A stretch of DNA of 26,636 bases from Actinomycetota bacterium. GTDB lineage: Bacteria; Actinomycetota; Actinomycetes; S36-B12. The translations under genes were made by a program, and so were the position numbers. The notes beneath the pieces are model-generated. The model had not been told where the DNA came from. It saw only the letters and a program-made list of their open reading frames with translations, and did no database searches. The DNA lies in contig JAPLBU010000419.1 of NCBI GenBank assembly GCA_026392575.1, positions 6,033-32,668 of the forward strand, read 5' to 3'. Positions 9,060-25,752 of the stretch are shown in pieces (positions within the stretch are counted from its first letter, which is position 1; every line of letters begins with the position of its first letter).

Positions 9060-10757
9060 CTAAATGATTGGTGCCGTTTCAGTTCCCAAGACGACGAGCC
9101 CATAGGCCACTGCCCATCGGTGGCCGAGCGCAGCGGCGACGTCAGCCCGGCCGACCACGCCTGCGCCCAGTGCGGGGTTCAGCGCCTCGAGGATCTCGTC
9201 GTCGCCAGCTGGGCCGCCGATGACGATGACATCGTGCAGGGCATTCTTCTCGCGGTGTCCGGCCAGGATGCGGGACAAGTTCGTCGCAAAGACCTGCCGC
9301 TTGAGCGCGAGCCTGATCGCCCGCCATTCGGCGAGCGCGAGCGTGCGCGAGAAGGGCAGGTCGCCGCTCGGGCCACTGGTGGTGATCCACCCGATGCTCC
9401 CGTGGGGCGCCTGGTCGATGGCGAACCTGCGTTCGCCGGACTCGTCGGAACGGACGAAGGGCGAATCGACACGGGAAGCCGGACCGCGCTTGACCCACTC
9501 GGCAGCCCCGGCCGAGATCGACAGTGTGTGCGCCACGGCCGACGTCATAAGCTCGCCGCAGCCCGCTGCCGTCAGGCTCTCCCCAAGGGGCCCGATGGCA
9601 TCGATCGTGCCCCCCCCGAGGTCCACGACCCACGCATCGGCCGAGACCCCCGGGGTGGTGAGCGCCCCTGCCCGGCTCGCCTGTGCCTCCGAGCCGACCA
9701 TGTCGATCCGCCCGCCCCAGACGTCCGAGAATGCCGCGGCAGGTTCATGAATTCCGGTTGCGGGAGACAGAGCCGCCAGCAGCAGTCGGCGTTCGTGGAC
9801 GGATCCCGACCGCAGGCCCGAAAGCTCGGACAGGTCGTCGAGATCCACCAGCCACAGGTCATCGGTATTGACGGGTGCCTCGCCGGAAAGCAGGTACTGG
9901 CAAACGCCGCCCACCGGTGTCATCGCGATGATCGGCAGGGCGTCCATGAGCGCGATCCGTCTACCGTCACGGAATATGGCGGCCGCCTCGTCGAGGGGCT
10001 CAGACCTGATTTCGGTGGTGTCGCGCCGCCTCCCGATCACGGCGCAGCGGTGCCCGTATGTCATTGCGCAGGCTGCACGGACGTGTCCATGATCCGCAGC
10101 GTCGAGGGCCAGGGCCGAGGCGAGCCAGATGGGGTCCGCCAGCGCACGCACGTGGTTCCCCCCGCGCGCCACTTCGACCGCCACGAGCACGCAGGCGAGT
10201 GTGGCGTCGGCGTCCACGCCGTCGACGATGGGAATGCCGTCGCCTGTGCGAGCCGCCACGAGGGCAGCTTCGTCGCCGGCGAGGAGGACGGCGACCACGT
10301 CATGACCTGCGCCCCGCCATTCCAAGATGCGTTCGACGGTCGACCGGTAACCGAGCGGATCGCGGGCCACCAGAACCACGGGCCCGAGGGAGGACGACGG
10401 AATGCCGCCGGTCGCATCCCAGGGATGCCCAACGGCCGCACCATTGCCGGCCGGAGTGGCAACGCCGCTGGAGAGCAGGGTGACGACGCCGGTGTCCGGT
10501 TTCATGGTGGGGACGTCGATCCGCCGCGTGTGCACCGGAACCTGAGGGGTCATCAGCACTCGCTCAACCGGCGACCCTGAGCGCCTCTCGAGGCGGTTGA
10601 GCAGGGCAGCGGCGCCACGCGCGGACTCGGCGGACCCCTTCGCACCGCGGGTCGGGGCCCGATCCCACGCGACGGGCAAGGGTGGTTCGACAGACGAATC
10701 CGCGATGACGATCTCCGTCGTCGAGTTGCCGATGTCGACCCCCGCGACGATCGTCAC
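9060..10757 (-). CDS. pduG: Diol dehydratase reactivase alpha subunit (DdrA/PduG family)
   Basis: N-terminal AGVDIGNSTTE, TRGAKGS, IPIVDGV, VVDLGGGTID, AEWVKRG and VIVIGG: an actin/Hsp70-like ATPase fold. Translationally coupled (GTGA) to the dehydratase small subunit. Confidence 0.88.
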   Translation of the reverse strand: MTIVAGVDIGNSTTEIVIADSSVEPPLPVAWDRAPTRGAKGSAESARGAAALLNRLERRSGSPVERVLMTPQVPVHTRRIDVPTMKPDTGVVTLLSSGVATPAGNGAAVGHPWDATGGIPSSSLGPVVLVARDPLGYRSTVERILEWRGAGHDVVAVLLAGDEAALVAARTGDGIPIVDGVDADATLACVLVAVEVARGGNHVRALADPIWLASALALDAADHGHVRAACAMTYGHRCAVIGRRRDTTEIRSEPLDEAAAIFRDGRRIALMDALPIIAMTPVGGVCQYLLSGEAPVNTDDLWLVDLDDLSELSGLRSGSVHERRLLLAALSPATGIHEPAAAFSDVWGGRIDMVGSEAQASRAGALTTPGVSADAWVVDLGGGTIDAIGPLGESLTAAGCGELMTSAVAHTLSISAGAAEWVKRGPASRVDSPFVRSDESGERRFAIDQAPHGSIGWITTSGPSGDLPFSRTLALAEWRAIRLALKRQVFATNLSRILAGHREKNALHDVIVIGGPAGDDEILEALNPALGAGVVGRADVAAALGHRWAVAYGLVVLGTETAPII

Positions 10758-11110
10758 CTCAGGAGGCCCCGCTCGAGGTAGATGCCGGCGGCCTCGCGCA
10801 CGAGGGCGGCATTGAGCACGGCGCCGCGGGCCTCGAGGTCGGCGGCGACTGCCTCGAAATCCTCGCGCGTGGACCGCCGTGGGCGAAGCGCCTCGTAGAT
10901 GCCCATGACCAGCGAGTCAGGCAGCAACGCCAACTCGGCTGCACGGCGGAAGTTGGCCGCCAATTGCGGATTGCCGTGCTCCTCGGCGATCTGGGCCTGG
11001 ATCTCGAGGGTCTGCGGGTGGATGCGGACGTCCTCGATGTCGACGTCGCCGGCCCGGAGCGCGTCCAGGGTCACCTCGGAGACGGGTCGTCCCGACTTGG
11101 CGAGAGTCAC
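10754..11110 (-). CDS. pduE: B12-dependent diol dehydratase small (gamma) subunit
   Basis: Motifs SGRPVSEVTL, DVRIHPQTLEIQAQIAE.HG.PQLAANFRRAAEL, YEALRPRRST and VREAA. Start GTG 11110 follows AAGGAG and overlaps the upstream stop. Confidence 0.92.
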   Translation of the reverse strand: MTLAKSGRPVSEVTLDALRAGDVDIEDVRIHPQTLEIQAQIAEEHGNPQLAANFRRAAELALLPDSLVMGIYEALRPRRSTREDFEAVAADLEARGAVLNAALVREAAGIYLERGLLR

Positions 11111-13371
11111 GGTGCCACTCCTTCCAGGGACATGAGCTCGGGTCGGGCCGTCGGGCCGCACCACTGACGTTCAATCGCTACGAGCGACACGACGGTCGTG
11201 TGGTAGCGGGCTTCGATGGCCTCGTCGGAGTAGGGATTGCGCTCGGGCTCGGGGGTGGCGCCCTTGGCATGACGCCCGGCGTTGATGCCCATCTGCCGGT
11301 AGGAGGCCCGCGTCAGGGAAGGAGCGACGCTGTAGAGCTCGAGATTCGCAAGCGGAGTGAGGTCTCGACGGTGGATGAGTGCGGTTCCCTTGGCCTGCAG
11401 CCCGATGCCGATGCCTGACCCTGCCATCCGTGCGGCCGTCAGGCCGATGAGGCCGAGGTCGATCGTGTCGTTCACGCGCACGATGCGACCGACGCAGCCC
11501 TCCTCCTCCAGGCCGGCGAGCAGTTCATCAAGGGCCTGGGTGACCGTGAGTCCCGACAGTGTCCGCCAGATGGCGCGCCCGGCTGCGGGTGACAGGCCGA
11601 TGACGACGTCGCGTGGGTCGTGGCCGGCCGTGGCCGGCCCGACCGCGGTGAGCGCGGCACTGCGGTAGGAGCCCTGCTCCACGCGCAGGTCTTCGACGGA
11701 GCGCTCCTGCCGGATCGCGTCGATCTCGGCCTGGCGCTGAGGCGTGGGGACGTAGCCCGTGCCGGGGCCGGCGTAGTCATTGGGATCCGTGACGAGCGAG
11801 AGCACCTCCATGTCCTCGGTGAAGATCGCCGCGGTCTGTAGGTAGTCCCCGTGGACTCGCGCATGAAGCATGTCCAGCAAGCGTTCTGCCTCGATCTCGT
11901 AGCCGGCCTCGTCCAGGGCCAGGACGACGTCGAGCATCGTCACGTTCGTGTCGCGGATGAGCCGCGAGGCGGTGAGTGGCGTCATGAGATCGGCATCGGG
12001 GACGTCCTTGCTGCCGGCGGCGTCCACCGCCTGTGCCATCCAGGCTTCGGTGAAGTCGCCCAGTCCCAGGATCCGATAGACGTCGCGGACGGCCTCGACG
12101 GCCCGCTGCCGCAGCGCCGCCACGTGGGGCTCGGCCGCCGTGCGCAGGCCACCGTCGACGCCCCAGTCGCGCTGCATCGCCAGGAAGTCGTCGATGTCCT
12201 CGGCGTTCCACTGGCTTGGGCCGAACATGTTGTCGTAGCGCTGGATGGAGCCGAAGCCGCTGCAGATGAAGTCGGAGCCACCGATGAAGATCGGGTGGGT
12301 GCGAGACGTGCGCCGGACGTCGGACTCGCTCATCAGGGCGTCGTTCCCCGTGCACGCCTCGAGGTTGCGCAGCATCACCATCAGGTTCTCGGCCATCAGG
12401 CTGCGCACCCCGCCAGGGACCGCACCGGCCACGGATGCCGAGTCGATGCCGCCGTTCTGCACGCCCTGTGACCCGATGGCCCGAGCGAGGGCCACGCACC
12501 GCGCCTCGAGGTAGAACATGGACCGGCCCTCGGCGCTGCCCATCAGCGCTTCGGCGCCGCCGCCCGAGGTCACCCGCATCTTGATGCCGCGACTTGCGTA
12601 GGCCGAGGTCAGGAAGGCCTTCGACCAGGGGGTGTCGTCGCCGTCGATGAAGATCTGCTCGGTGCCGTAGAGCGATACGGTCTCGGCGTACGACACGAGT
12701 CCGCGCATCCCCATCTCCAGCTCGAGGGCCTCCTCGACGGAGCACTGGACGAGAATTCCCCGCGACGCGACTGCCGCGCCGATGCTGACCGCGATCGCGT
12801 TGGAGGGGGCGTCACCGAGGACGGGAACCGTCGTCTCGATCTCGCGGAACCCGAACGCGGCAGCCGTGGCGGCGTCGGCGGCGAGCAGCAGCGGATCGTC
12901 GGAACGGTTCGTGACGTGTGCTTGGTTGCTGGGCGTGCGACGCGCCCGGCACTTCGTCATCGCGATAACCAGTTCGGCCGGTCGCAGGAGTGCGAGCACC
13001 TGCGCGAGCTTGGCCGGCGTCATGCCGGCCGCGAGGCGGACGACCTCGGCGCGAGACGTTCCCAGGTCCACGATCATGCGGGCGAACGCCAGGTTGTCGA
13101 TGGCCATCGCCTCGGCGGCCACCCCGAGGTCGAGACCGTGCACGGAGATGAAGGTGTCGATGATGTCGAACTGCGCCGCGGCCCGGAAGTCCATCTCGAC
13201 GACCCGGCCGTCGACGATGCTCAGCGACGGCTGCGGGTCCGCGGGGGAATCGAAGGCGATCAGGCCGAGCGAGGCGTCCTCGACGGCGAACCCGTCGAGA
13301 TTGACGCGCTGCTGATCCATGAAGCGGAATCGGCCGATCGGCTGCCTGGGCTCCCGCTCGTCGACGGTCAT
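11107..13371 (-). CDS. pduC: B12-dependent diol dehydratase, fused large (alpha, PduC-like) and medium (beta, PduD-like) subunits, 754 aa
   Basis: Alpha motifs NQAHVTN, EIETTV, YAETVS.YGTE, DGDDTPWSK, QNG, GND, YDNMF and NDYAGPGTGY run in frame into beta motifs VVIGLSPA, AGLEEEG, SGIGIGLQAKGT and NLELY. ATG 13371 has an ATGA overlap. Confidence 0.95.
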   Translation of the reverse strand: MTVDEREPRQPIGRFRFMDQQRVNLDGFAVEDASLGLIAFDSPADPQPSLSIVDGRVVEMDFRAAAQFDIIDTFISVHGLDLGVAAEAMAIDNLAFARMIVDLGTSRAEVVRLAAGMTPAKLAQVLALLRPAELVIAMTKCRARRTPSNQAHVTNRSDDPLLLAADAATAAAFGFREIETTVPVLGDAPSNAIAVSIGAAVASRGILVQCSVEEALELEMGMRGLVSYAETVSLYGTEQIFIDGDDTPWSKAFLTSAYASRGIKMRVTSGGGAEALMGSAEGRSMFYLEARCVALARAIGSQGVQNGGIDSASVAGAVPGGVRSLMAENLMVMLRNLEACTGNDALMSESDVRRTSRTHPIFIGGSDFICSGFGSIQRYDNMFGPSQWNAEDIDDFLAMQRDWGVDGGLRTAAEPHVAALRQRAVEAVRDVYRILGLGDFTEAWMAQAVDAAGSKDVPDADLMTPLTASRLIRDTNVTMLDVVLALDEAGYEIEAERLLDMLHARVHGDYLQTAAIFTEDMEVLSLVTDPNDYAGPGTGYVPTPQRQAEIDAIRQERSVEDLRVEQGSYRSAALTAVGPATAGHDPRDVVIGLSPAAGRAIWRTLSGLTVTQALDELLAGLEEEGCVGRIVRVNDTIDLGLIGLTAARMAGSGIGIGLQAKGTALIHRRDLTPLANLELYSVAPSLTRASYRQMGINAGRHAKGATPEPERNPYSDEAIEARYHTTVVSLVAIERQWCGPTARPELMSLEGVAP

Positions 13372-13802
13372 GCGTGAACCTCGTCCTCGAAGGTTGCGGC
13401 GGCGGCCTCGGCGGCTGTCCTGTCCTGGGTGGCGCTTCCGCCGCTGACTCCGACGGCACCCACGACGCGATCGCCGTCCCACAGTGGGACGCCGCCCGCG
13501 AAGGCGATGTATCGGCCTTGATCGGCAGAGTTCATGCCCGCGAGGTCGGCGCCGGGCTGCACGAGGGGGGTGAGCTCATGCGTGGCGATCCGGTGGGCCA
13601 CGGCCGTGAAGGCCTTGTCACGCGCGAGGACTGGCCCGGCGATCTCCGCCCCGTCCATGCGTTCGAAGGAGATGAGGTGGCCGCCGGCATCGACGATCGC
13701 GACGGACACCAGCGCGCCTGCGGCGCTCGCTGACACCCGTGCGGCCCCGCTCATGCGCTGCGCGAGGTCTAGGTCCACCTCGTGTCGGGTCACGCGTGCC
13801 AT
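13368..13802 (-). CDS. GlcG/HbpS-family heme-binding protein (like the PduO C-terminal domain or DhaG)
   Basis: Motifs VAIVDAGG....ERMDGA, A.DKAFTA, GGVPL..G.VVGAVGVSGGS..QD. Confidence 0.88.
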   Translation of the reverse strand: MARVTRHEVDLDLAQRMSGAARVSASAAGALVSVAIVDAGGHLISFERMDGAEIAGPVLARDKAFTAVAHRIATHELTPLVQPGADLAGMNSADQGRYIAFAGGVPLWDGDRVVGAVGVSGGSATQDRTAAEAAAATFEDEVHA

Positions 13803-14815
13803 GATGCCGCCTTCCGTCGCAGTTCCGCGTGCTTGCCGTCCATGGCGATCGCGCCACCGAGTACTGACTTCGGGACCTTGCAGACCACTGTGTAGGCGGT
13901 GTCGACGACGTTCGCGATGGGGGTCAGTGCCGTCTGCGAGACGAATTGGTAGGAGTCGATGGCGCTCTGCCCCGTCAGCTCAGCCACCCAGAGCACCATC
14001 TGGTGGTGGGCGATGCGGAAGGCGTCCTCCAGCGGACGCGCCGACCCGGTGGTCATGATGTAGCCGTCGCTCTCGATCCGGGGCCAGGCCGTGGGTCGGC
14101 CGCGCACGACGTCGAGGATGACCGTGGTGTCCATTGCACACTCGACGGCGACGCCGCAGGTCTCTCCCTCGCCCTGTCGCGCGTGTCCGTCGCCAAGGCT
14201 GAAGAGAGCCCCCTCGACGTTGACGCCGAGGTAGCACGTCACCCCCGCCCGCATCTCCGGTGTGTCCATGTTGCCGCCCCAGTCGCCGGGGGCCAAGGAC
14301 GAGCGCACCTCGCTCAATGCGGGCGCCACGCCGACGGTGCCATGCATCGGATCGAGGGGAAGGGCTGCGGTGAACGGGGTATCGGCGGCAAGGTAGCGGA
14401 CCACGGACTCCGCTCGGTCGATCTCGTAGATCCAGGTGCGCTCGAGCAGGGAGGTGTGCAGCATCGCGGTCATCGGAGTCGAGGTGAGCGCTCCGAAGAA
14501 CGGGACCGTTGAGCTGACGCCCCACGATTCGCGAGGCTCGATGGAGACGAAATGCACGGCGAGGGTGTCGCCGAGCATGGCGCCCTCGACGTAGAAGGGT
14601 CCGGACTGGGGATTCAGCAGCCGCGGGTCGCAGACTTCGCTGGCCATGTCAGAAGTCGAGCGCACGCGCCCGCCGAAACAGTCCATCGTCCAAGTCGACA
14701 GCAGGGTTCCGGGCCGTATCGACGCCACCGGAGCGACCCCGCCGAAGGTGTAGGTGTAGGTCGTGGGGTCCGCGCCGGCATCGGGCTCCCACCGGAATTC
14801 CTGCGGTGCGGTCAC
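13790..14815 (-). CDS. Acetamidase/formamidase family amidohydrolase
   Basis: Motifs NPQSGPFYVEGAM.GDTL, PMHGTVGVAP, GGNMD, GALFSLGDGHARQGEGETCGVAVE. GTG 14815 follows GGAG. Confidence 0.9.
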   Translation of the reverse strand: MTAPQEFRWEPDAGADPTTYTYTFGGVAPVASIRPGTLLSTWTMDCFGGRVRSTSDMASEVCDPRLLNPQSGPFYVEGAMLGDTLAVHFVSIEPRESWGVSSTVPFFGALTSTPMTAMLHTSLLERTWIYEIDRAESVVRYLAADTPFTAALPLDPMHGTVGVAPALSEVRSSLAPGDWGGNMDTPEMRAGVTCYLGVNVEGALFSLGDGHARQGEGETCGVAVECAMDTTVILDVVRGRPTAWPRIESDGYIMTTGSARPLEDAFRIAHHQMVLWVAELTGQSAIDSYQFVSQTALTPIANVVDTAYTVVCKVPKSVLGGAIAMDGKHAELRRKAASWHA

Positions 14816-14855
14816 GGTTCGCTCCAAGGGGTCGCGGGTTGCGTCAGTGGGAACA

Positions 14856-14908: not shown

Positions 14909-16522
14909 TCAGACGCGCTCGTGCGCCTCTTCGATCGTCGTGCGCCCGATCTCCGCATAGATCTCCGGCCTCTTGGCCTTGAGGTAGAGCGCGTATACGA
15001 CGCCGATCCCGAACAGGCCGACGATGTAGTACGGCATCCACTGGAACACCATGCTGTCGGCGGCGAGGCCGGCCGCGAAGTTGCGGTTCGACCACAGCAG
15101 CCACAGGACGTACAGCATGCCGGCGGCGCCGATGAGCGGCGCCACGAAGGTCGACAAGAAGTTGCCCTTGTGCACCTTCTTGACCCAGAAGAACCAGAGC
15201 ACCGCTATCGACGTTATCGACTGGACGATGAGTACCATCGCCGTTCCGATGATGGCAAGCAGGCCGTACACGTTGACGTAGGGGATCAAGTCAGGCGTGG
15301 CGACCGGATTGCCGTTGGCGTCCGCCACGTAGACGTTCGTGAACAGCTGGAACAGCACCAGCAGCAGGATCGTGATGCCCGTCTGGGTGAACGAGGCGAT
15401 CGCGGGGGACCCGTGCTTGTGGTTCACGTGGCCCAGGGTTCTGCGCACGACGGGAGCCACGCTCTCGCGGCCCATCGCGTACAGGTATCGCGCCGCTGCG
15501 TTGTGGAAGGCAAGCGCGCACGCGAAGGATCCGAGGACGACGAGGAACTTGTAGACATTGACCATGAAGCCACCGAAGTTCTGGTCGACAAGCCCGATCC
15601 ACAGGTCGATCGGGCTCGCGCCGGCGGAGAGTTCGACGGACGCCTGCGCGCCGTTGCCCACGACGACCATCCAGGACAGGAACGTGTAGAAGATCCCCAG
15701 GCCGATCACCGCGATCATGGTGGCGAGGGGGACGTTGCGCTTCGGGTTCTTGGACTCCTCGCCGTACACGGCGGTGGTCTCGTATCCGATCCAGGACCAG
15801 AACGCGAAGAAGATGCCGATGGCTGCGATACCGGCGGCCGCACCGGACCCGTAGGCGTCTGCTGGCAGGGAGACGAAGGCTGCGGCCGGACTGACCGTAT
15901 CGGCGACCATGAAGCCGTCCGGCCCGCCCTTGAAGAGCACCGAGACGCCGAGCGCGGTCAGGAGCAGCACCTCGCAGATGAGCGTGACGCCGAGGATGCC
16001 AGCGGCGAGGGTCACCGAGTAGTAGGTCAGAGCCGCGATGACGAGGCAGGCGATGATGCCGATGATGAGCCAGTGGACGTTGAAGCCCATAGGCGCGAGC
16101 ACGTAGTCGGATGCGAAGTACGCGAACGCTCCGATGAGGGACCCCTCGAACACGATGTAGGCCACTGCCGCCAGCATCCCGGACGCCATGCCCCAGACCT
16201 GGCCCAGGCCGTGGGAGATGAACCCGTAGAAGGCGCCGGCAGTGGTGACGTGGCGGGCCATCGCGACGAAGCCCACCGTGAAGATGGCGAGCACGATCAT
16301 CGCGAACAGGTAGCCACCCGATGCGCCGATGCCGTTGCCGTAGCCGACGGCGATCGGGACGTTGAATGTCATGGCCGTGATGGGCGCGGCGTTGGCCACC
16401 GCCATGAACAGGACACCGAGCAGGCCGACCGCGCCGGCCTTCAGCCGGGCAGCGTCCTTTTCGGGAACGACGTGGTCGCCGGGCAGGGCGTGGGGCCCGT
16501 CCTCGATGTTGCTCGTAGTCAT
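14909..16522 (-). CDS. APC-family amino acid/amine permease
   Basis: About 12 hydrophobic segments with ANAAPITAM, FYGFISHGLG and WIGYETTAVYGEESKNP. RBS GAAAGGA. Confidence 0.92.
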   Translation of the reverse strand: MTTSNIEDGPHALPGDHVVPEKDAARLKAGAVGLLGVLFMAVANAAPITAMTFNVPIAVGYGNGIGASGGYLFAMIVLAIFTVGFVAMARHVTTAGAFYGFISHGLGQVWGMASGMLAAVAYIVFEGSLIGAFAYFASDYVLAPMGFNVHWLIIGIIACLVIAALTYYSVTLAAGILGVTLICEVLLLTALGVSVLFKGGPDGFMVADTVSPAAAFVSLPADAYGSGAAAGIAAIGIFFAFWSWIGYETTAVYGEESKNPKRNVPLATMIAVIGLGIFYTFLSWMVVVGNGAQASVELSAGASPIDLWIGLVDQNFGGFMVNVYKFLVVLGSFACALAFHNAAARYLYAMGRESVAPVVRRTLGHVNHKHGSPAIASFTQTGITILLLVLFQLFTNVYVADANGNPVATPDLIPYVNVYGLLAIIGTAMVLIVQSITSIAVLWFFWVKKVHKGNFLSTFVAPLIGAAGMLYVLWLLWSNRNFAAGLAADSMVFQWMPYYIVGLFGIGVVYALYLKAKRPEIYAEIGRTTIEEAHERV

Positions 16523-16786
16523 GGACCATCCTTTCGGACGAAGACCTGCGTGATGCAGATCACGTGCGCCGGATTATCGCGCTAACGGCGGACCGTTACA
16601 AGCATTTTCCACTATTCCGGTCTGGAATTCTTCCAACACTTATGTCAATACGGTCTAGCTTCTTGACCGTAATCCGCCGAATACCTATGCGAATCGGCCA
16701 TGCGGAGGGGCCGAGCATGATCGGAGGAGGGGAGAAATCTCCCCTTTGGGCCTTGCTTTGGTCTGTTTTTTCGGTATGGTAATCAA
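16523..16786. promoter_or_regulatory. Divergent control region with several inverted repeats
   Basis: More AT-rich than flanking genes. Inverted repeats TAACGG-N4-CCGTTA (16583-16598), TACGGTCTAG-N3-CTTGACCGTA (16649-16671) and AGGGGAGA-N2-TCTCCCCT (16728-16745). Confidence 0.7.
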
Positions 16787-16787
16787 G
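16753..16787 (+). promoter_or_regulatory. Putative housekeeping-sigma promoter giving a leaderless transcript of the BMC operon
   Basis: TTGCTT (16753-58)-N16-TATGGT (16775-80)-N6-GTG start, with no Shine-Dalgarno before the GTG. Confidence 0.5.
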
Positions 16788-18115
16788 TGACTGGGCAGAC
16801 CAATAAGACGGATGGTGAAGCAGCGCCCGAGTACGACTACGGGTTGTTCTCCTTCGCCTCGAAAGCCGAGGTCTTTGAGAAGGCCAAGGAGTACTGGAAC
16901 CCTGGCAAGACGCAGTTCTGGATCGACTCCGGCATTCCTCTGGTCATCGACCGGCGCGAGGAGTACTTCATCTACGACATGTCGGGCAAGCGACTGATCG
17001 ACCTGCACCTCAACGGCGGCACGTACAACCTGGGCCACCGCAATCCCGAGGTCGTCCAGGCCGTAACCATCGCCATGCAGCACTTCGACATCGGCAACCA
17101 CCACTTCCCCGCACTGGCTCGTACGGCATTGGCCGAGGCCCTGATCTCGTCGGCTCCCCCCGGGCTCACCAAGGTCATCTACGGGTCGGGCGGGGGAGAG
17201 GCGATCGATATCGCCATCAAGACGGCGCGCCATGCCACCCAGAAGCGCAAGATCCTGTCGATCATCAAGGCATATCACGGCCACACCGGGCTCGCCGTGG
17301 GCACCGGCGATGACCGGTTCTCCAAGCTGTTCCTCTCCGATCAGCCGGAGGACTTCCCGCACGTGCCGTTCAACGACCTGAATGCCATGGAGGCGGCCCT
17401 GAAGGGGCGTGACATCGCCGCCGTCATCATGGAGACGATCCCGGCGACATACGGTTTCCCCCTGCCGGAGCCCGGCTACCTGCGCGCGGTCAAGGCGCTG
17501 TGCGAGAAGTACGACGCCCTCTACATCGCTGACGAGGTGCAGACCGGCCTCATGCGCACCGGTGAGCTGTGGGGCATCACGAAGGATGGCATCTCCCCGG
17601 ACATCATGGTCACGGGCAAGGGCATCTCTGGGGGCATCTACCCGATCGCGTGCGTGCTCGTGAGCGAGCGGTGCGCGGGCTGGCTGACTGAGGACGGCTT
17701 CGGGCATATCTCGACTTTCGGTGGGGCCGAGCTCGGCTGTATCGCGGCGCTGAAGGTCCTTGAGATCACCTGCCGCCCGGAGACCCGCTCGATGGTCCAC
17801 TACATCGCGGACTTCATTGGACGCGGCCTGCGGGAGATCCAGGCCACCTACCCGGACTGGTTCATCGGCATCCGCCAGAACGGCGTGATCTTCGGCCTGG
17901 AGTTCAACGATCCGCAGGGTGCGAAGTACGTCATGAGGCGCCTGTACGAGAACGGTGTGTGGGCGATCTTCTCGACTCTGGATCCACGGGTGCTCCAGTA
18001 CAAGGCCGGCATCCTGCTCAAGCCCGAGCTCGCGGAGGAGCTGCTCGATCGCACGCAGGTCGCCATCGGCCAGGCGTACGACGATGTGCGCGGCGGGAAG
18101 GGGGGCCGGAGATGA
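16787..18115 (+). CDS. Class III PLP aminotransferase-fold enzyme; RMM/AAU aminopropanol-phosphate phospho-lyase candidate
   Basis: Motifs LNGGTYNLGHRNP, YHGHTG, ADEVQTG and DIMVTGKGISGG (PLP Lys). Same position as the equivalent gene in the M. smegmatis RMM locus. Confidence 0.88.
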   Translation: MTGQTNKTDGEAAPEYDYGLFSFASKAEVFEKAKEYWNPGKTQFWIDSGIPLVIDRREEYFIYDMSGKRLIDLHLNGGTYNLGHRNPEVVQAVTIAMQHFDIGNHHFPALARTALAEALISSAPPGLTKVIYGSGGGEAIDIAIKTARHATQKRKILSIIKAYHGHTGLAVGTGDDRFSKLFLSDQPEDFPHVPFNDLNAMEAALKGRDIAAVIMETIPATYGFPLPEPGYLRAVKALCEKYDALYIADEVQTGLMRTGELWGITKDGISPDIMVTGKGISGGIYPIACVLVSERCAGWLTEDGFGHISTFGGAELGCIAALKVLEITCRPETRSMVHYIADFIGRGLREIQATYPDWFIGIRQNGVIFGLEFNDPQGAKYVMRRLYENGVWAIFSTLDPRVLQYKAGILLKPELAEELLDRTQVAIGQAYDDVRGGKGGRR

Positions 18116-19674
18116 GCTCGGTGACGATGTCTGAGATCCCGCTCGAGCCGGCCGGCGTGCCGCGCGGCCGGGCCATGGTGGAACGCGCCGAGTGGGCCGC
18201 TCGCGCATTCGCGCGCTACGACATCGAGAGCGTGCGACGCATTGCCAAGGCCGCGGCTGAGGCCGGCGCCGCCCATGCCAAGAGGTTCGGCGACGACGCG
18301 GTCGCCGAGACGGGCTTCGGCGTCGCCGAGCACAAGTACCTCAAGAACATCTCCTGCTCGACCGGTATCTGGGAGATGTACAAGGGCCATGATTACGTCA
18401 GCCCTCGTGTCCTGGAGCAGCAGAAGATCGTCGAGATCCCCCGGCCCGCGGGCGTCGTGCTCGCGCTGACCCCGTCGACCAATCCGGTCGCCACGGCCTA
18501 CTTCAAGGTTCTTTCGGCACTCCTGACCCGAAATTCCATCATCGTGTCCCCCCATCCCTACGCCAAGAAGGTCAGTGCGGAGGCGGTCCGGGTCATGAGC
18601 GAGGCTGCCGTCGCCGCGGGTGCTCCCGACGGCTGCATCCAGGTGGTCGAGGAGCCGTCGATCCCCCTGATCACCGCGCTGATGACCGATGACCGGGTAG
18701 CCGTCGTCGTTGCGACGGGTGGCACTGCGATGGTCCGGGCGGCCTACCGGAGTGGGAACCCTGCGCTCGGCGTGGGCCCGGGCAACGTCCCGGTCCTGGT
18801 CGATGCCTCAGCCGACGTCACGATGGCGGCGCGTCGAATCGTAGCCAGCAAGTCGTTCGACAACTCGATCCTGTGCACCAACGAGAGCGTCCTCATCGTC
18901 GAGGACGCAGTCGCAGACAAGCTGGTCCAGGCCCTACGCCGCGAGGGCGCGTACATCGCGTCCGCCGAGGAGGCCGAGTCCATCCGCGCCGTGATCTTCG
19001 ACGGCGAGAACTTCCGCACCAGCTGGGTCGGGCGCGACGCCACCGCGATCGCCAAGGCCGCCGGCATCCGCGTTCCCGCCGCGACCAAGATCCTGATCGC
19101 GCCGATCGATCTGGTCGTGCCCGAGGAGATGCTGGCGCACGAGAAGCTCTGTCCGGTGCTCGGCATGGTGCGCGTGCCAACTGCGGGACGGGGCATCGAC
19201 GCGGCGCGTGCCGTCCTGCGCATCACCGGAGCCGGGCACAGCGCCGCCATCCACAGCCAGGACGCGCGGACGATCATGGACTTCTCCGCCGCAGTTCGCG
19301 TCCTGCGTGTCTCCGTCAATGTCGGCAACAGCCTCGGGGGCGCTGGCATCGAGACCAACCTGGCTCCCACCATGACGATCGGCACCGGGTTCTTCGGGCG
19401 GTCGTCGCTGGGGGAGAACCTCGAGCCGAAGCACCTTGTCAACATCACGCGGATCGCGTACAACGCCGACGCGGCGGTGACGATGCCCAGTTTCGCCGGG
19501 ATCGATCCGTGGTCGGCTCCGACCGGCCCGGTGCCGGTCTACCCGCTCCCGTCGAATGCGCACGAAAGCGGTGTCGCCCCCGTCGAGCGACGCGATCAGG
19601 CCGACGACGGGGAGCTGCGCGAGGAGATCCGCCGGCTGGTCATCGAAGAGCTCCGACAGATCATTAAGGGCTGA
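18112..19674 (+). CDS. CoA-acylating aldehyde dehydrogenase with C-terminal encapsulation peptide
   Basis: Motifs PAGVVLALTPSTNP, ATGG, GVGPGNVP, SFDNSILCTNES (catalytic Cys) and HEKLCP. Pro-rich linker, then ELREEIRRLVIEELRQII. Confidence 0.92.
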   Translation: MSSVTMSEIPLEPAGVPRGRAMVERAEWAARAFARYDIESVRRIAKAAAEAGAAHAKRFGDDAVAETGFGVAEHKYLKNISCSTGIWEMYKGHDYVSPRVLEQQKIVEIPRPAGVVLALTPSTNPVATAYFKVLSALLTRNSIIVSPHPYAKKVSAEAVRVMSEAAVAAGAPDGCIQVVEEPSIPLITALMTDDRVAVVVATGGTAMVRAAYRSGNPALGVGPGNVPVLVDASADVTMAARRIVASKSFDNSILCTNESVLIVEDAVADKLVQALRREGAYIASAEEAESIRAVIFDGENFRTSWVGRDATAIAKAAGIRVPAATKILIAPIDLVVPEEMLAHEKLCPVLGMVRVPTAGRGIDAARAVLRITGAGHSAAIHSQDARTIMDFSAAVRVLRVSVNVGNSLGGAGIETNLAPTMTIGTGFFGRSSLGENLEPKHLVNITRIAYNADAAVTMPSFAGIDPWSAPTGPVPVYPLPSNAHESGVAPVERRDQADDGELREEIRRLVIEELRQIIKG

Positions 19675-19677
19675 CCG

Positions 19678-20280
19678 ATGGCCGACCTACGCTCCTTCAT
19701 CTTCTTGGACAGGCTGCAGCCTCAGACCATGTGCTACCTGGGCACCATGGTCCGCGGGGCGCTCCCCCGGGCGGATGTCGCGGCACAGATCATCGAGGTG
19801 GCCCCCGGCCTGGATATCGAGCCGCTCACCGACGTCGCACTGAAGTACGCCGAGGTCTCGGCGGGGATGCTGTTCGTCGAGCGGCAGTTCGGGTATCTGG
19901 AGATCCACGGGCCCACCTCCGCGGTGAAGGCGTCGGGCGAGGCCGTTCTCACGCAGTTGGGCGCCTCGGCCAGTGATGCAATGAAGCCGCAGATCCTCGC
20001 CTCGCGCATCGTGACGATGCTCGACCGGCAGCACGCATTCCTCATCAACCGGAACAAGATCGGGTCCATGGCGCTGCCGGGCGAATCGCTCTTCGTGCTT
20101 GAGATGCAGCCCGCGTCGTATGCCATCCTCGCGACGAACGAGGCGGAGAAAGCCGCTCGCATCAAGGTCGTGGACTACCGCATGGTGGGTGCCACGGGAC
20201 GCGTGTACCTGTCGGGGAAGGAAGCCGATGTCCGCCAGGCCGCTGAGGCGGCCGAGGAAGCATTGAGGGTGGTTTCGTGA
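19678..20280 (+). CDS. BMC-T shell protein (double-stacking, CcmP-like type)
   Basis: LRSFIFLDRLQPQ, VERQFGYLEIH and GATGRVYLSG; tandem BMC domain size (200 aa). Confidence 0.92.
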   Translation: MADLRSFIFLDRLQPQTMCYLGTMVRGALPRADVAAQIIEVAPGLDIEPLTDVALKYAEVSAGMLFVERQFGYLEIHGPTSAVKASGEAVLTQLGASASDAMKPQILASRIVTMLDRQHAFLINRNKIGSMALPGESLFVLEMQPASYAILATNEAEKAARIKVVDYRMVGATGRVYLSGKEADVRQAAEAAEEALRVVS

Positions 20281-20735
20281 CCCAGCGGATTCCTGCCGAC
20301 CTGCTTCGCGACATGGTGCGAGAGATCCTCATGGACGTCGTCGAGTCCGAGGTGGCCGGGCGTGTGGACAGCCTCGCGGGAGGGGAATCGGTCGGCGGCC
20401 GTCGGCGCGAGACTGTGGCGATCGGCAGCCAGGACGATCTGAACCGCGCGATCCGCAGGATCCTCGCCGACGCAATGGACCCCCAGCGGCGCGGTGCCAT
20501 CGAGCAGGGCGACATCGCTTTCGTGCTTTCGACGGCAACGCTGGAGCAGGCACCAAGGAGACCTGCTGTTGTTGAGCCGATCCACCGAGTCGACAAGGGT
20601 GCGGTCACGGAAAAGCAGGTCCGGGCGGCCGCAGACGCAGGCGCAACGATCGTCACGGCGCATCGCGTGGTCATCACCCCGCTCGCCAAGGACAAGGCAC
20701 GCTCGCTGGGCGTCGTCATCACAAGAGAGTCGTAG
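20277..20735 (+). CDS. Conserved RMM-locus protein of unknown function
   Basis: Coupled GTGA start. Two amphipathic helices and a C-terminal VITPLAKDKAR module. Occupies the slot of the unknown gene between BMC-T and BMC-P in RMM loci. Confidence 0.8.
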   Translation: MTQRIPADLLRDMVREILMDVVESEVAGRVDSLAGGESVGGRRRETVAIGSQDDLNRAIRRILADAMDPQRRGAIEQGDIAFVLSTATLEQAPRRPAVVEPIHRVDKGAVTEKQVRAAADAGATIVTAHRVVITPLAKDKARSLGVVITRES

Positions 20736-20743
20736 GAGGGGCC

Positions 20744-20998
20744 ATGCTTCGTGGACGAGTGATCGGCAACATCTGGGCGTCGAAGCGCCTGGACGAGGTG
20801 CCCAACGGGGCCTTCCTCGAGGTCGAGGTCGAGCCCGGCGGTGCTCGGCTCATCGCCTTCGACGTGCTGGGCAGCGGCGTCGGCGAACACGTACTGGTGG
20901 CGACGGGATCCGTCGCCGCCGCCTGGTTCCCCGGGCAAGCGCCGCCCATCGACGCGCTGATCATCGGATCCATCGATGAGTCGTCGTCCGGCTTCTAG
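20744..20998 (+). CDS. BMC-P pentameric vertex protein (EutN/CcmL family)
   Basis: [32 protein letters not shown] and [20 protein letters not shown]. Confidence 0.93.
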
Positions 20999-21062
20999 CG
21001 ACCTACCACCACACAAACCTCCTCGCGGCATCAGTCACGGGGAAGACAAGGAAGGGAAGACC

Positions 21063-21353
21063 ATGTCCAACAATGCGATCGGCATGATCGAGACGAAGGG
21101 CTACGTGGCCGCGCTGGCAGCCGCCGACGCCATGGTGAAGGCAGCAAACGTGACCATCGTCAGTCGCGAGCAGGTCGGCGACGGACTTGTCGCCGTGACC
21201 ATCGTGGGTGACGTCGGCGCCGTGAAGGCGGCAACAGAGGCCGGCGCGGAAACGGCACAGGCGGTGGGCGAGCTCGTCAGCGTCCACGTCATCCCGCGCC
21301 CGCACCCCGAGCTGTCGAGGACCTTCGGCATCTCGGCTGACCCGTCGGAGTGA
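21063..21353 (+). CDS. BMC-H hexameric shell protein
   Basis: [19 protein letters not shown], pore loop [14 protein letters not shown] and HVIPRPH. Confidence 0.95.
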
Positions 21354-22003
21354 CCGCACTGCCGCAGGCTGGGGAGACCGAGCTTCGCGTCTACCTTCTG
21401 CTCGAGGATCTGCAGCCGCAGTTCGCCGCGTACCTTGGCACGCCTACCCGGGCGCGCGGCTATCCGCCGTATTCGGGGCAGAACGCCCTGATCGTGGAGG
21501 TGGCGCCCGGCCTGGCCATCGAGAGGGTGACCGACCTCGCGCTGCGCTCCGTTCCCGGCATCGAGCCGGGGATCCTGTTCGTCGAGAGGCAGTTCGGAGT
21601 CCTGGAGGTGCATGCCGACTCGCTCGCAGATGTCATCCGGGCGGGTGAGGCGATCCTCACTGGAACGGGCACGCGGGCCGAGGACCAGCTGCGTCCACGG
21701 ATCCTGTATCACGACGTGATCGAGGACGTCACAGACCAGCATGCGGTGATCATCAACCGGAACAGGCAGGCGTCCATGCTGCTTCCGGGCGACAGCCTTC
21801 TCGTCTTCGAGATGACGCCGGCGCTGTTCGCCGCGATGGCCGCGAACGAGGCCGAGAAGGCGGCGCCCGACATCACCCTCGTGGACGTCCAAATGATCGG
21901 AGCAGCCGGTCGTGTGTACATCGGGGGTCAGACAAGTTCGGTGAACCGGGCGCGTGAGGCCATCGGCTCTGCTCTGATGTCCGTGGTCGGACGCGATCAG
22001 TAG
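21350..22003 (+). CDS. Second BMC-T shell protein (double-stacking type)
   Basis: [24 protein letters not shown] and [10 protein letters not shown]; paralogous to 19678..20280. Confidence 0.92.
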
Positions 22004-22037: not shown

Positions 22038-23018
22038 ATGATCGTTGCCGAGCCGCAGTTCGAGGACTTCGCCCACGCCGCGCGGGACGCGTACGACCTC
22101 GACCCGAGTGCTGAGCTCACTCTGCTCAACGTCAGCGAAAACGGCACGTTCCGCGTCGACGATCCGGTGCAGGGACGATCGGTGCTGCGCGTGCACCGTA
22201 CGGGGTACCACGCCCGCGAAGCCATCGCGAGTGAACTGGCGTGGATCACTGCCCTGCGCAGCGAGGGCACCGTGCGAACCCCAGCCTTCATCCCGTCGCC
22301 CGCCGGCGACGACGTCGTTCTGGTGCGGCTGGCCGGTGGCGAGGAGCGCTTCGTGGTGCGCTTCGAATGGGTCGACGGAGTGGAGCCGACTGAGGACCGA
22401 CTCGCTGCGGACTTCGAGGAGCTTGGCGGCATCACCGCTCGCCTGCACGCGCACGCCCGCACTTGGCGGCGCCCGGAGGGATTCACGCGATTCGTGTGGG
22501 ACTTCGACACGTCGCTCGGCGAGCATGGCCACTGGGGACGGTGGCAGGACGGGCTGGCCGTAGGCCCGCAGGAGCAGGAGGTCCTCGGCCGATGCGCAGA
22601 CCTCATCCGGCGTCGACTGGCCGTCTACGGCACGGGACCCGAGCGATTTGGGCTCGTTCATGCCGACATGCGCCTGGCCAACCTCCTCGTCAAGGGGAAT
22701 GACGTCACGGTGATCGACTTCGACGACTGCGGCCTGAGTTGGTTCATGTACGACCTAGGATCGTCCCTGTCCTTCATCGAACATGAGCCCTACGTCCCGG
22801 AACTGGTCGATGCCTGGGTTCGCGGATACCGCGCCGTAGCGCCGCTGACGGCGCAGGACGAGGCTGAGTTGCCCACCTTCATCATGCTGCGCCGGCTCCT
22901 GCTGGTTGCCTGGATTGGATCCCACTCGAGCACCGAGACCGCGCAGGCGATGGGCGAGGACTACACCGCGACGAGCTGCCGGCTCGCCGAACACTACCTG
23001 GGCACGATGGCGATCTGA
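22038..23018 (+). CDS. Aminoglycoside-phosphotransferase/choline-kinase-fold enzyme; 1-amino-2-propanol kinase candidate
   Basis: SENGTF, Brenner motif [10 protein letters not shown] and IDFDDCG, in RMM context. Confidence 0.88.
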
Positions 23019-23028
23019 GAGGACACGT

Positions 23029-23811
23029 ATGTTCACGTCGATAGCGGGGAGGTCAGTCATCGTCACGGGCGGCACCAAGGGCATCGGCAAGGGGATCGCC
23101 CGGGTCATGGCCAAGGCGGGCGCGAACGTCCTCGTCACGGGACGTAATCGAGACGACGCGGAAGCCACCGTCGGTGAGCTGGATGCGCTCGGGACGGGTC
23201 GCGTCGAGTACTTCCTCGGCGACGTGGCCGACGCCGCTGCCTGCCAGGCGATGGCGGCCGCGGCCATCGAGTCCTTCGGGGGGATCGACATCCTGTGTGC
23301 GAACGCCGGCATCTTCCCCGACGCGAAGCTCGCAACCATGAGTGAGGAGGACATGGACCGCGTCTTCGACACGAACATCAAGGGCACTCTCCTCACCGTC
23401 CAGGCGTGCATCCCGGCGCTCGCCGCCTCGGGCCACGGACGCGTGGTCCTCACGTCCTCCATCACCGGTCCGATCACCGGCTTTCCGGGCTGGTCGCACT
23501 ACGGAGCGAGCAAGGCGGCGCAACTCGGCTTCATGCGCACGGCCGCCATCGAACTGGCCCCCCTCGGTATTACCGTGAACGCCGTCCTACCGGGCAATGT
23601 CGCCACCGAGGGCCTCGCTGACTTGTGGGAGGGCTACCGTCGCTCCATGGAGATGTCGATCCCGATGCGCCGGTTGGGCGACGTCGAGGACATCGGTAAC
23701 GCGGCCCTGTTCTTCGCCTGTGACGAGGCCGCCTACGTGACCGGGCAGGCGCTCGCCATCGACGGTGGCCAGGTTCTCCCCGAGTCTCTCGCGGCCCTGG
23801 AGGCGATGTAG
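23029..23811 (+). CDS. Short-chain dehydrogenase; aminoacetone reductase / 1-amino-2-propanol dehydrogenase candidate
   Basis: [33 protein letters not shown] and PGN. RBS GAGGA before ATG 23029. Confidence 0.9.
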
Positions 23812-23815
23812 CGCG

Positions 23816-24622
23816 ATGGCTGAAGCGGGACTCGACGATTCCGGGGCTATCGGGCCAACTGCCGAGGATGCACGGCGACGCCTGGTCGGGATGGTCGAAC
23901 GCGGCACCCTCAGGCCGGGGCAGCGGCTGGGCGCGGAGCGGGAACTCGCCGTGAAGCTCGGGGTGAGTCGGTCGACCCTGCGCCAAGCGCTCGGCGCCCT
24001 CGAGGAGGCGGGCGTCGTCCGGCGGGTTCCGGGCCGCGGGGGCGGCACGTTCATCGCCTCTCCGAAGGTGGAGCGGGATCTGTCCCGGATCGTCGGCATC
24101 CCCATGCTCCTGCGGGATCAGGGATTCACGGCCGGCTCGCGCGTGTTGAGCGTGGCGGTCAGGACCGCCGGACCGGAGGCGGCGCGGGCGCTGGGCATCG
24201 CCGAGGACGAGTTCGTCGTAGATCTGGTGCGCATCCGACTCGCCGACGGAGTGCCGATATCCCTTGAGCAGGCAGTCTTCCCCGCGGAACTCGTGCCCGG
24301 CCTGCCGGAACGTGCGCTAGGAGGTTCCATCTACGAGCTGTGCGACAGCGAGTACGGGCTGCGTCCCGACGAGGCGATCGAGCACATTGAGGTGGTCTTG
24401 GCCTCGAGTGACGAGGCGGCGGTCCTGGGAATCGATAGGGGGGATCCGCTGCTACTGGTGACCCGCACCACCCGCACCGCTGCCGGAGTGGCGTTCGAGT
24501 TCTCCCGCGACCTCTTCCGCGCTGATCGGACGCGAATAAGTGTCAAGGTGAAGGGATCGCCTGCGAACGAGAAGGCGCGCTTGCGAGGCCGCATCGTCGA
24601 GCTCGTACCTCCAGCGGAGTAG
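23816..24622 (+). CDS. GntR-family regulator (HutC/UTRA subfamily)
   Basis: wHTH (ERELAVKLGVSRSTLRQAL...GRGGGTF) followed by a UTRA domain (RIRLADGVPISLE...FRADR). Confidence 0.92.
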   Translation: MAEAGLDDSGAIGPTAEDARRRLVGMVERGTLRPGQRLGAERELAVKLGVSRSTLRQALGALEEAGVVRRVPGRGGGTFIASPKVERDLSRIVGIPMLLRDQGFTAGSRVLSVAVRTAGPEAARALGIAEDEFVVDLVRIRLADGVPISLEQAVFPAELVPGLPERALGGSIYELCDSEYGLRPDEAIEHIEVVLASSDEAAVLGIDRGDPLLLVTRTTRTAAGVAFEFSRDLFRADRTRISVKVKGSPANEKARLRGRIVELVPPAE

Positions 24623-24627: not shown

Positions 24628-25752
24628 GTGCGCGCTCGCGACCTGCCCATCCGGTTTCAGGGAACGCCCGGGCCACTCAATGCCTTGACCGACGTGCCTG
24701 GTGTCGAAGTGGGGATGGTGACGATCGTCGGGGATGATCCGACGGACTACTCGCTGTCCGCGCGCACCGGCGTAACGGCGATCCTCCCGCTCGGGCGCGA
24801 ACGAATCGGCACGTCCGTCCCGGCGGCCATCTACTCGCTCAACGGCAACGGCGAGATGACCGGGTCGCACTGGATCGATGAGACGGGCTCGTTGTCGAGC
24901 CCGGTGATGATCACCAATACGCACGCCGTCGGAACGGTTCATCGAGGCGTGATCGATTGGTTCGCCGACAACCGGACCGCCCTCGCCGCGGAGTGGCTGC
25001 TCCCAGTTGTGGCCGAGACATGGGACGGGTATCTCAACAGCATTAACGTCCCGCACGTCATGCCGCCTCACGCCGGGCAGGCGATAGACGCCGCCTCGGA
25101 GGGGCCTGTTGCCGAGGGCTCGGTCGGTGGGGGCACTGGGATGAACTGCTACGGATTCAAGGGTGGCAACGGCACGGCGTCACGTGTTGTGAGGCTCGGC
25201 TCCGGCGAGTTCACGGTGGCCGTGTTCCTTCAGGCGAACTTCGGCGCCCGCCGTGAGCTGATGATCAATGGCGTGCCCATGGGCGACCTCGACGTCCCCT
25301 GCCCGATCGATGACGACGACTGGCTGCTTGAGGACCGGCGGTCAGGGGCGGGTGCGGGCTCGGTCATCGCCGTTGTCGCCACGGATGCACCGATGATGCC
25401 CCAACAGTGCGCGGCAATGGCCCGTCGCGTGCCGCTTGGCCTCGCCCGCACGGGAACGACGGGCGGCCATTTCAGCGGGGACCTATTCCTCGCGTTCTCC
25501 ACGGCGAATTCGGGGGCTCTCGACAGTGGGTTCCCGACAGACCCAGGTTCGGAAGTCAAGCTAAGAACGATGCAGCTGGTCCCGTGGAACCACATGGACG
25601 CCTTCTTAGCCGCGACGGTTCATTGCGTGGAGGAGGCAGTGCTCAACGCGCTGGTGTGCAACGCGACCATGGTCGGGCGGTCCGGTCACGTCAGTCATGC
25701 GCTCCCGAACGATCTCGTTCGCGAGCGGCTCGCCTCCAGCGGCGGCGCGTGA
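24628..25752 (+). CDS. DmpA/BapA-like (peptidase S58/P1) N-terminal-nucleophile amidohydrolase
   Basis: NALTDVPGVEVG, TGVTAILP, NGNGEMTG, TNTHAVG, AETWDGYLN, GSVGGGTGM, and the autoprocessing site G/SVIAVVATDAP. Confidence 0.9.
   Translation: MRARDLPIRFQGTPGPLNALTDVPGVEVGMVTIVGDDPTDYSLSARTGVTAILPLGRERIGTSVPAAIYSLNGNGEMTGSHWIDETGSLSSPVMITNTHAVGTVHRGVIDWFADNRTALAAEWLLPVVAETWDGYLNSINVPHVMPPHAGQAIDAASEGPVAEGSVGGGTGMNCYGFKGGNGTASRVVRLGSGEFTVAVFLQANFGARRELMINGVPMGDLDVPCPIDDDDWLLEDRRSGAGAGSVIAVVATDAPMMPQQCAAMARRVPLGLARTGTTGGHFSGDLFLAFSTANSGALDSGFPTDPGSEVKLRTMQLVPWNHMDAFLAATVHCVEEAVLNALVCNATMVGRSGHVSHALPNDLVRERLASSGGA

Follow-up and report, generated by a model that had tools for sequence, protein, structure and literature searches.

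A clade of diol dehydratase-family proteins with an invariant pocket aspartate, commonly encoded beside amino-alcohol genes in two phyla

We analyzed a 26,636-nucleotide stretch of DNA (hereafter the window; contig JAPLBU010000419.1 of assembly GCA_026392575.1, positions 6,033 to 32,668 of the forward strand) from an Actinomycetota bacterium. Its source is a high-GC actinobacterial metagenome-assembled genome (MAG; 3.0 Mb in 453 contigs, 74% complete) with a single dehydratase large-subunit gene. This minus-strand gene encodes a predicted adenosylcobalamin (AdoCbl)-dependent dehydratase of the diol dehydratase family, in which an aspartate and an alanine replace two residues of the classical substrate pocket. 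The open reading frame (ORF; 11107-13482, minus strand) carries the large- and medium-subunit domains on a single chain, matching PF02286 (3e-226, 752 bits) and PF02288 (85 bits), and the alpha-beta protein scores 815 bits against the NCBIfam large-subunit model (cut-off 788). We place the start at ATG 13369-71 because this codon forms an ATGA overlap with the stop codon of the upstream HbpS-like/GlcG ORF, a gene that holds the equivalent position in a Nocardioides locus (L003). The gamma-subunit gene likely starts at a GTG overlapping the alpha-beta stop codon, and no reactivase beta-subunit gene follows the reactivase alpha gene in the dehydratase operon.

A control region shared with the divergent permease-dehydratase operon precedes a plus-strand microcompartment arm (Table 1), and Pfam and PDB matches indicate that this is an amino-alcohol locus. 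We take the solved structures that best match the APH-family kinase (6EF6) and the short-chain dehydrogenase/reductase (SDR; 6CI8 and 6CI9) to be the M. smegmatis (S)-1-amino-2-propanol kinase and aminopropanol dehydrogenase, respectively. The class-III aminotransferase-fold enzyme presumably serves the RMM pathway as its aminopropanol-phosphate phospho-lyase. Among solved structures, its closest relative is a putrescine aminotransferase (~3e-51), with no phospho-lyase at that threshold, so this activity is assigned only presumptively. The true start of the aldehyde dehydrogenase (ALDH) gene is probably near 18112, and the gene order of the shell block agrees with that in the Nocardioides locus.

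Table 1. Features of the window and pocket codons of its dehydratase. Residues are numbered as in diol dehydratase; "clade" denotes the class 3 sequences described in the text.
Feature	Position	Strand	Evidence or remark
Reactivase alpha subunit (DdrA/PduG-like)	9060..10757	-	PF08841 + PF18427
Dehydratase small (gamma) subunit	10754..11110	-	PF02287, 8e-37, 127 bits
Fused alpha-beta subunit, AdoCbl-dependent diol/glycerol-type dehydratase (predicted), 754 aa	11107..13371	-	PF02286, PF02288, PDB alignment
Arg codon, position 369 (classical Asn)	12238..12240	-	Arg or Lys in most clade members
Glu codon, position 340 (classical His)	12325..12327	-	second acidic clade-signature residue; coordinates computed by hand
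Ala codon, position 336 (classical Gln)	12337..12339	-	clade has A, N, T, S or C, never Q
Asp codon, position 301 (classical Ser)	12442..12444	-	invariant in clade
Gly codon, position 299 (classical Ser/Ala)	12448..12450	-	clade signature along with Asp301
HbpS-like/GlcG (PduO C-terminal type) protein, translationally coupled to dehydratase	13368..13802	-	PF03928, 5e-32
Acetamidase/formamidase-family hydrolase (FmdA/AmdA type), in dehydratase operon	13790..14827	-	PF03069; PDB 5ubu 3.5e-59
APC-family amino-acid/amine permease, first gene of minus-strand operon	14909..16522	-	PF13520 + PF00324
Shared divergent control region between permease-dehydratase and microcompartment arms, 264 bp	16523..16786	.	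sequence read
Class-III aminotransferase-fold enzyme	16787..18115	+	PF00202
CoA-acylating ALDH of microcompartment	17959..19674	+	PF00171; NCBIfam EutE/AdhE-type matches
Microcompartment shell block (BMC-T, unknown, BMC-P region, BMC-H, BMC-T)	19678..22003	+	PF00936 in two ORFs
APH-family kinase	22038..23018	+	PF01636; 6ef6_A 1.4e-94, best solved match by far
SDR	22906..23811	+	PF13561; best solved matches include 6CI8 and 6CI9, ~3e-97
GntR/UTRA regulator of locus	23765..24622	+	PF07702 + PF00392
S58/DmpA hydrolase	24628..25752	+	gene not conserved in relatives

We aligned the dehydratase with the alpha subunits of K. pneumoniae glycerol dehydratase and K. oxytoca diol dehydratase. The alignment contains no gaps over ~540 residues (query 51-588 against 1dio_A 5-542), so diol dehydratase numbering equals the ORF position minus 46. 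This bears out the numbering used in the initial annotation of the window, which had been made without database searches; the codon positions it gave for residues 296, 301, 335, 336 and 362 all proved exact when mapped by script (Gln296, 12457-59; Asp335, 12340-42; Ser362, 12259-61), and the Gln141, His143, Glu170 and Glu221 that it had noted upstream are all present in register. Thr172, Thr222, Gln296, Asp335, Ser362 and Phe374 are likewise kept. The motif QNG(S/A)VS has become QNGGID in the window dehydratase, and NDQ has become NDA, placing Asp and Ala where the classical C3 pocket has Ser301 and Gln336. Membership in the structural family stands, and membership in the propanediol/glycerol-specific group is not established.

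The two substituted positions have a known role in the classical enzyme. In the glycerol complex of diol dehydratase, the C3 hydroxyl of one binding mode faces Ser301 (PMC7674605). The mutants S301A and Q336A and the double mutant (Yamanishi 2012, as described in PMC7674605) were built to withstand inactivation by glycerol and to act on longer diols; they turn over propanediol with a kcat of 98-247 per s and show altered glycerol inactivation. The initial annotation had given both the placement of these residues by substrate C3 and the engineering of alanine mutants in agreement with this source.

An AlphaFold2 model built from a 27-sequence alignment superimposes on 1dio_A with a TM score of 0.95 (root-mean-square deviation 2.1 Å over 549 columns) and on 1dio_B with a TM score of 0.93, confirming the alpha TIM barrel and the beta-domain fold.

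To place the substitutions in the family, we compared positions 296-302 and 334-338 across every homologue retrieved and across 113 genome loci with Asp301. An even, phylum-wide sample of 401 actinobacterial genomes gave 8 matches, which was too sparse, and was replaced by a pattern scan. The sequences fall into three classes. Class 1 is classical, with QNG-S/A-V/I-SC and NDQ, and its members are unfused and lie in PDU-like or dha-like loci. Class 2 comprises fused enzymes of Thermoleophilia/Gaiella with Ser301 and Ala336. Class 3, which includes the window dehydratase, has QNGG(I/V)D. Asp301 and Gly299 are invariant in all 259 class 3 sequences (195 actinobacterial and 64 alphaproteobacterial), which argues that the pocket change is not due to chance. 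Glu340 is nearly invariant, and the calcium-binding and catalytic residues Gln141, His143, Glu170, Glu221, Gln296, Asp335 and Ser362 are fully so across the clade. Phe364 and Gly365 are further class-wide changes, most members have a basic residue at 369, and the alphaproteobacterial branch also carries Arg337. Arg369 is a possible counter-charge to Asp301.

A maximum-likelihood tree separates class 3 from the other sequences at a branch with an SH-aLRT support of 99, places the Actinomycetota and Alphaproteobacteria groups as sisters, and joins the window dehydratase with locus L038 (support 99). Since class 3 is monophyletic, Asp301 arose once. The idea that Asp301 merely accompanies the alpha-beta fusion was rejected, as the fused Thermoleophilia/Gaiella enzymes keep Ser301. 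The suggestion in the initial annotation that QNGGID is a general trait of actinobacterial fused dehydratases thus holds in part: the motif is a lineage trait, but it extends to the Alphaproteobacteria and is absent from some fused enzymes. Cultured members of the clade include Nocardioides islandensis, Kineosporia, Trebonia kvetii, Mycolicibacterium species, Tepidamorphus gemmatus and Shinella pollutisoli. Two genomes, whose genus we take to be Mycobacterium or Mycolicibacterium, encode class 3 copies together with a classical Ser301/Gln336 class 1 enzyme.

Several further observations concern the membership of these classes. Some genomes hold multiple paralogues: G111 has two Asp301 types and one classical enzyme (L085, L086 and L087), and G152 (L088, L089) and G402 (L099, L103) also have more than one. 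Shinella pollutisoli carries two Asp301 types on a single contig, one of them near a PotD-like transporter, a dimethylglycine-dehydrogenase-like gene and an OpuAC gene. Locus L017, on a contig labelled as a gammaproteobacterial MAG, encodes a dehydratase 76% identical to that of the window and nested within the actinobacterial clade; this placement probably reflects a binning error rather than gene transfer. Two class 2 loci from Thermoleophilia/Gaiella (L097 and L098) have a third, distinct context, in which the gamma gene precedes the alpha-beta gene, an SDR, an FAA-family hydrolase, an ALDH and an epimerase-type gene are neighbors, and an amine oxidase and a tautomerase lie close by.

Position 336 varies within class 3: the window subclade has Ala, Mycolicibacterium has Asn, Gaiellales/Solirubrobacterales have Thr, and Alphaproteobacteria have Thr, Ala, Ser or Cys. 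Residues 336-338 as a whole are characteristic of subclades (ALM, NLI, TLM, or T/A followed by R), consistent with an explanation in which the clade dehydrates some other polar vicinal diol, uncharged or differently charged, such as glycerol, butanetriol, a tetritol or a hydroxylated intermediate. Here Asp301 would be a hydrogen-bond acceptor for the C3 hydroxyl, and substrates would vary among subclades with residues 336-338. Ser301 already hydrogen-bonds the C3 hydroxyl of glycerol (PMC7674605), sugar-type ATP-binding cassette (ABC) transporters occur in some alphaproteobacterial loci, and the partner seen most consistently is an adjacent SDR. Such a substrate would nonetheless leave the recurrent kinase, phospho-lyase, PotD-like and APC transporters and amide hydrolases unexplained, and the window's dehydratase operon contains no polyol genes; we consider this explanation unlikely.

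We next compared gene neighborhoods, using the window's own proteins as queries. Orthologues of at least one partner gene (aminopropanol dehydrogenase, kinase or phospho-lyase-like aminotransferase) lie within ~10 kb of the dehydratase in 74 of the 94 class 3 loci with usable flanks, compared to 0 of 14 class 1 or class 2 loci. The link to amine transporters and amino-alcohol genes drawn in the initial annotation is upheld by these counts, which include alphaproteobacterial operons free of microcompartment genes.

For Actinomycetota, context was counted in 54 species-representative loci flanked by at least 8 kb in each direction. At least two of AT3, APH, SDR and GntR lie within 10 kb in 41 of these, with the nearest such gene at a median of 1.75 kb; shell genes are present in 32 of the 41 and absent from 9. 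The fraction rises to 29 of 31 loci in the Ala336 subclade. An APC permease homologue is present in 35 of the 54 loci, and an acetamidase/formamidase homologue in 15 actinobacterial loci, all of them closer relatives (at least 62% identity). Reactivase homologues were found at 67 loci of the earlier-collected part of the locus set, with no match in the stretches examined of alphaproteobacterial class 3 loci.

The alphaproteobacterial loci provide a second view of this linkage. Within one alphaproteobacterial order, an even sample of 401 genomes contained class 3 enzymes in ~30, and our context set comprises 26 loci with usable flanks, including four located by protein matches outside the sample. 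An SDR 52-63% identical to that of the window is present in 20 of the 26, an APH kinase (50-58%) in 10 and an aminotransferase-fold gene in seven. A typical operon consists of the dehydratase and gamma genes, an isochorismatase-like hydrolase, a PotD-like ABC transporter or APC permease, and the SDR, with the kinase and aminotransferase adjoining; at locus L113, the permease, kinase, SDR and dehydratase share one strand, and the SDR and dehydratase are separated by 8 bp. Most alphaproteobacterial class 3 loci lack shell genes. By comparison, five class 1 loci of the same order are PDU-like, with shell and reactivase genes and no partner genes.

These operons bear on the possibility that the protein is an ordinary propanediol (or glycerol or ethylene glycol) dehydratase serving as a second source of propionaldehyde, with Asp301 and Ala336 reflecting drift or tuning, for example against glycerol inactivation. 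Its co-location with amino-alcohol genes would then follow from propionaldehyde being common to the dehydratase and kinase/phospho-lyase routes; a bifunctional microcompartment of this kind, or non-use of the dehydratase, is proposed in the RMM2 passages of Axen 2014 (PMC4207490). In the window, acylating ALDH and shell genes are adjacent. Moreover, every characterized member of the family uses small neutral diols, the window enzyme keeps all catalytic residues, and the engineered Ser301 and Gln336 mutants retain the propanediol kcat given above. An invariant buried carboxylate beside a methyl group is, however, hard to call drift when it persists across two phyla, and classical paralogues co-occur in the same genomes. 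The alphaproteobacterial operons, furthermore, have amine-type transporters, a kinase and an SDR, mostly without shell or ALDH genes, and no MIP-type diol facilitator was seen. We regard an ordinary propanediol dehydratase as somewhat unlikely, yet as the strongest rival to the amine-bearing substrate proposed below.

Alternatively, the dehydratase could be functionally unrelated to its amino-alcohol neighbors, or unused, with the arrangement inherited from an ancestor. The single origin of Asp301 turns the contrast between classes into one event, stand-alone copies exist, and the RMM2 passages of Axen 2014 (PMC4207490) remark on the opposite-strand layout and suggest non-use. Against this, the linkage persists in two phyla despite many rearrangements of gene order, including same-strand operons, and the presence of amino-alcohol partner genes changes at least nine times on the tree yet remains the majority state. 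The window's ORF is also intact and highly conserved, with close relatives 80-95% identical. Overall, a dehydratase without a part in its locus appears highly improbable. The evidential weight of the neighborhood data lies in this persistence of linkage through many rearrangements in two phyla and not in the raw counts.

We predict that the product of the window gene is a functional AdoCbl radical dehydratase of the diol dehydratase family. It belongs to a distinct, old clade, marked by Gly299, Asp301, a residue other than Gln at 336, and Glu340, in which the C3 pocket is predicted to be enlarged and acidic. Because all calcium, substrate-hydroxyl and radical residues are kept, the substrate should still be a vicinal diol; we tentatively propose, with a probability of roughly 0.4, that this diol carries an ammonium group. 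The simplest candidate would be 3-amino-1,2-propanediol, with Asp301 as its counter-ion, and the carbonyl product would feed the amino-alcohol route. Classical regiochemistry would convert 3-amino-1,2-propanediol to 3-aminopropanal. With the secondary carbon at the hydrogen-abstraction site, the product would be aminoacetone, which would give each conserved gene a step: the SDR, the kinase, the phospho-lyase (yielding propionaldehyde) and the aldehyde dehydrogenase. That the clade comprises amino-diol dehydratases, a new AdoCbl enzyme specificity, making aminoacetone from 3-amino-1,2-propanediol or a close relative with reversed regiochemistry, as the first of a five-enzyme route conserved in two phyla in which the SDR would be the aminoacetone reductase, is decidedly unlikely in our estimation; if true, it would account for RMM2 as RMM1 plus a dehydratase. 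Direct, ammonia-lyase-like action on 1-amino-2-propanol was considered and rejected, as the ligands for the two calcium-bound hydroxyls are all conserved.

Amide hydrolases recur beside Asp301-type dehydratases, both in the window (13790-14827, minus strand; 24628-25752, plus strand) and elsewhere (L095:5335-6852; L096:12716-13411). They belong to different families: FmdA/AmdA and S58/DmpA in the window, amidase-signature in Bradyrhizobium, and isochorismatase-like (RutB/BiuH-like) in ~18 alphaproteobacterial loci. Since the amidase and permease lie in the dehydratase operon, and three unrelated families (FmdA/AmdA, amidase-signature and isochorismatase-like) recur in these operons, the compound may arrive as an amide.

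A number of points weigh against an ammonium-bearing substrate. In the structure model, pLDDT falls below 50 at model residues 307-310, 342-348 and 371-373, which contain or adjoin positions 301, 335-336 and 362; as confidence is lowest at these pocket loops, the orientation of the Asp side chain is taken from homology to Ser301 alone. Arg/Lys369, or Arg337 in the alphaproteobacterial branch, could neutralize Asp301. Asp301 is also invariant amid unrelated surroundings, in stand-alone Mycobacterium copies and in a basal Gaiellales/Solirubrobacterales group, and it is retained in a Mesorhizobium locus with a sugar-type ABC transporter, so it may be a structural feature of the whole clade, on which different specificities may have been built through residues 336-338. 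Ala336 is not conserved in the clade, and in phylogenetically independent contrasts (n=3) its association with amino-alcohol genes is not significant (p ~1); the raw table for Ala336 (55, 3, 19, 17) counts related sequences, and is for this reason not used as support. Because Asp301 has one origin, the comparison of class 3 with classes 1 and 2 is a single evolutionary contrast. On the chemical side, 3-aminopropanal would give the kinase and lyase no obvious use, and we know of no abundant natural source of 3-amino-1,2-propanediol. The S301A/Q336A mutants still convert propanediol (PMC7674605). Finally, clade members appear in the literature searched solely as predicted glycerol dehydratases, and no paper found there connects aminopropanediol with the diol dehydratase family.

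Other features of these loci stand apart from the question of substrate. One divergent Mycobacterium paralogue adjoins an APC permease and a PucR-type regulator. At the alphaproteobacterial class 3 locus L117 (G688:C36), a BMC-H gene at 789-1112, 71% identical to that of the window, lies beside the kinase, and RMM-like shells may therefore also exist outside Actinomycetota. The divergent control region of the window (16523-16786) is AT-richer than its surroundings and contains, near 16618, 16653 and 16760, three GGTCT(G/A)-type words that could be half-sites of a GntR/HutC-type operator; Rfam returned no riboswitch or other RNA family in the window. Farther from the dehydratase, two overlapping plus-strand ORFs in different frames (6181-7182 and 6575-7645) match a single aldehyde dehydrogenase, the first in its N-terminal half (Pfam positions 24-166) and the second in its C-terminal half (193-433), indicating a frameshift due either to pseudogene formation or to an assembly error. 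This gene belongs to an upstream sugar-acid operon with an IlvD/Edd dehydratase, an ABC transporter, a gluconolactonase and a zinc-dependent alcohol dehydrogenase.

B12-dependent diol dehydratase is a textbook radical enzyme and, to our knowledge, its natural substrates are a few small neutral diols. If the clade does have a different natural substrate, it would extend the few reactions known for AdoCbl eliminases by a new one, give the RMM2 dehydratase a role, and correct "propanediol/glycerol dehydratase" as the blanket annotation of the hundreds of proteins retrieved here and of many relatives. The clade occurs widely among soil and freshwater Actinomycetota and rhizobia-type Alphaproteobacteria, and its pockets are natural templates for engineering dehydratases toward substituted diols.

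Among known systems, the Klebsiella enzymes PddABC and GldABC/DhaB (PDB 1DIO, 1EEX, 3AUJ and 1IWP) share with the window dehydratase the fold, 47-48% identity in the alpha subunit with a gap-free active site, all calcium ligands, His143, Glu170, Asp335, Thr172, Phe374, a gamma subunit and a reactivase alpha subunit. The window differs in its alpha-beta fusion, the lack of a reactivase beta gene in the operon, and its amino-alcohol rather than pdu or dha neighbors. Its Gly299, Asp301, Ala336, Leu337, Met338, Glu340, Phe364, Gly365 and Arg369 correspond to Ser/Ala, Ser, Gln, Thr, Phe, His, Tyr, Ser and Asn in Klebsiella. The Yamanishi 2012 mutants alter the same two positions, and Q336A is identical to the window's change; position 301 was mutated to Ala and not to a carboxylate, and the window enzyme has several more changes in its pocket loops.

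Ethanolamine ammonia-lyase (EutBC) offers a more distant comparison. This AdoCbl enzyme belongs to the same TIM-barrel superfamily (model TM score ~0.55); its substrate carries an amine, which the enzyme binds through carboxylates. It differs in having no calcium site, in migration of the amine rather than a hydroxyl, and in its ~14% identity. The window enzyme is not a member of this family, but by analogy EutBC may serve as a model for how it works.

Mycobacterium smegmatis and Mesorhizobium loti have natural predicted "glycerol dehydratases" with the same alpha-beta fusion architecture as the window enzyme (Liu 2010, as cited in PMC7674605). Three M. smegmatis homologues are recorded in the literature as predicted glycerol dehydratases only; relatives in Mycolicibacterium and Mesorhizobium carry QNGGID, and the M. 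smegmatis and Mesorhizobium loti enzymes probably belong to the Asp301 clade. No paper in the literature searched notes the Asp301 signature or reports substrate data for the clade.

The closest system at the level of the locus is RMM2 (Axen, Erbilgin and Kerfeld 2014, PMC4207490). The window has the shell genes, class-III aminotransferase, ALDH, APH kinase, SDR, GntR regulator and permease of such a locus, its diol dehydratase genes neighbor them on the opposite strand, and it is an RMM2 locus by these features. That paper's account of RMM2 leaves the dehydratase either unused or part of a bifunctional compartment, and does not mention the pocket. The alpha-beta fusion (in M. smegmatis and Mesorhizobium loti) and the RMM2 arrangement are thus already on record. 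Our analysis describes the pocket signature and its distribution beyond RMM2, as well as the amidase and HbpS-like genes of the window subclade, and adds an alphaproteobacterial sister clade, the operon-level linkage to amino-alcohol genes found there, and the class 1 and class 2 controls.

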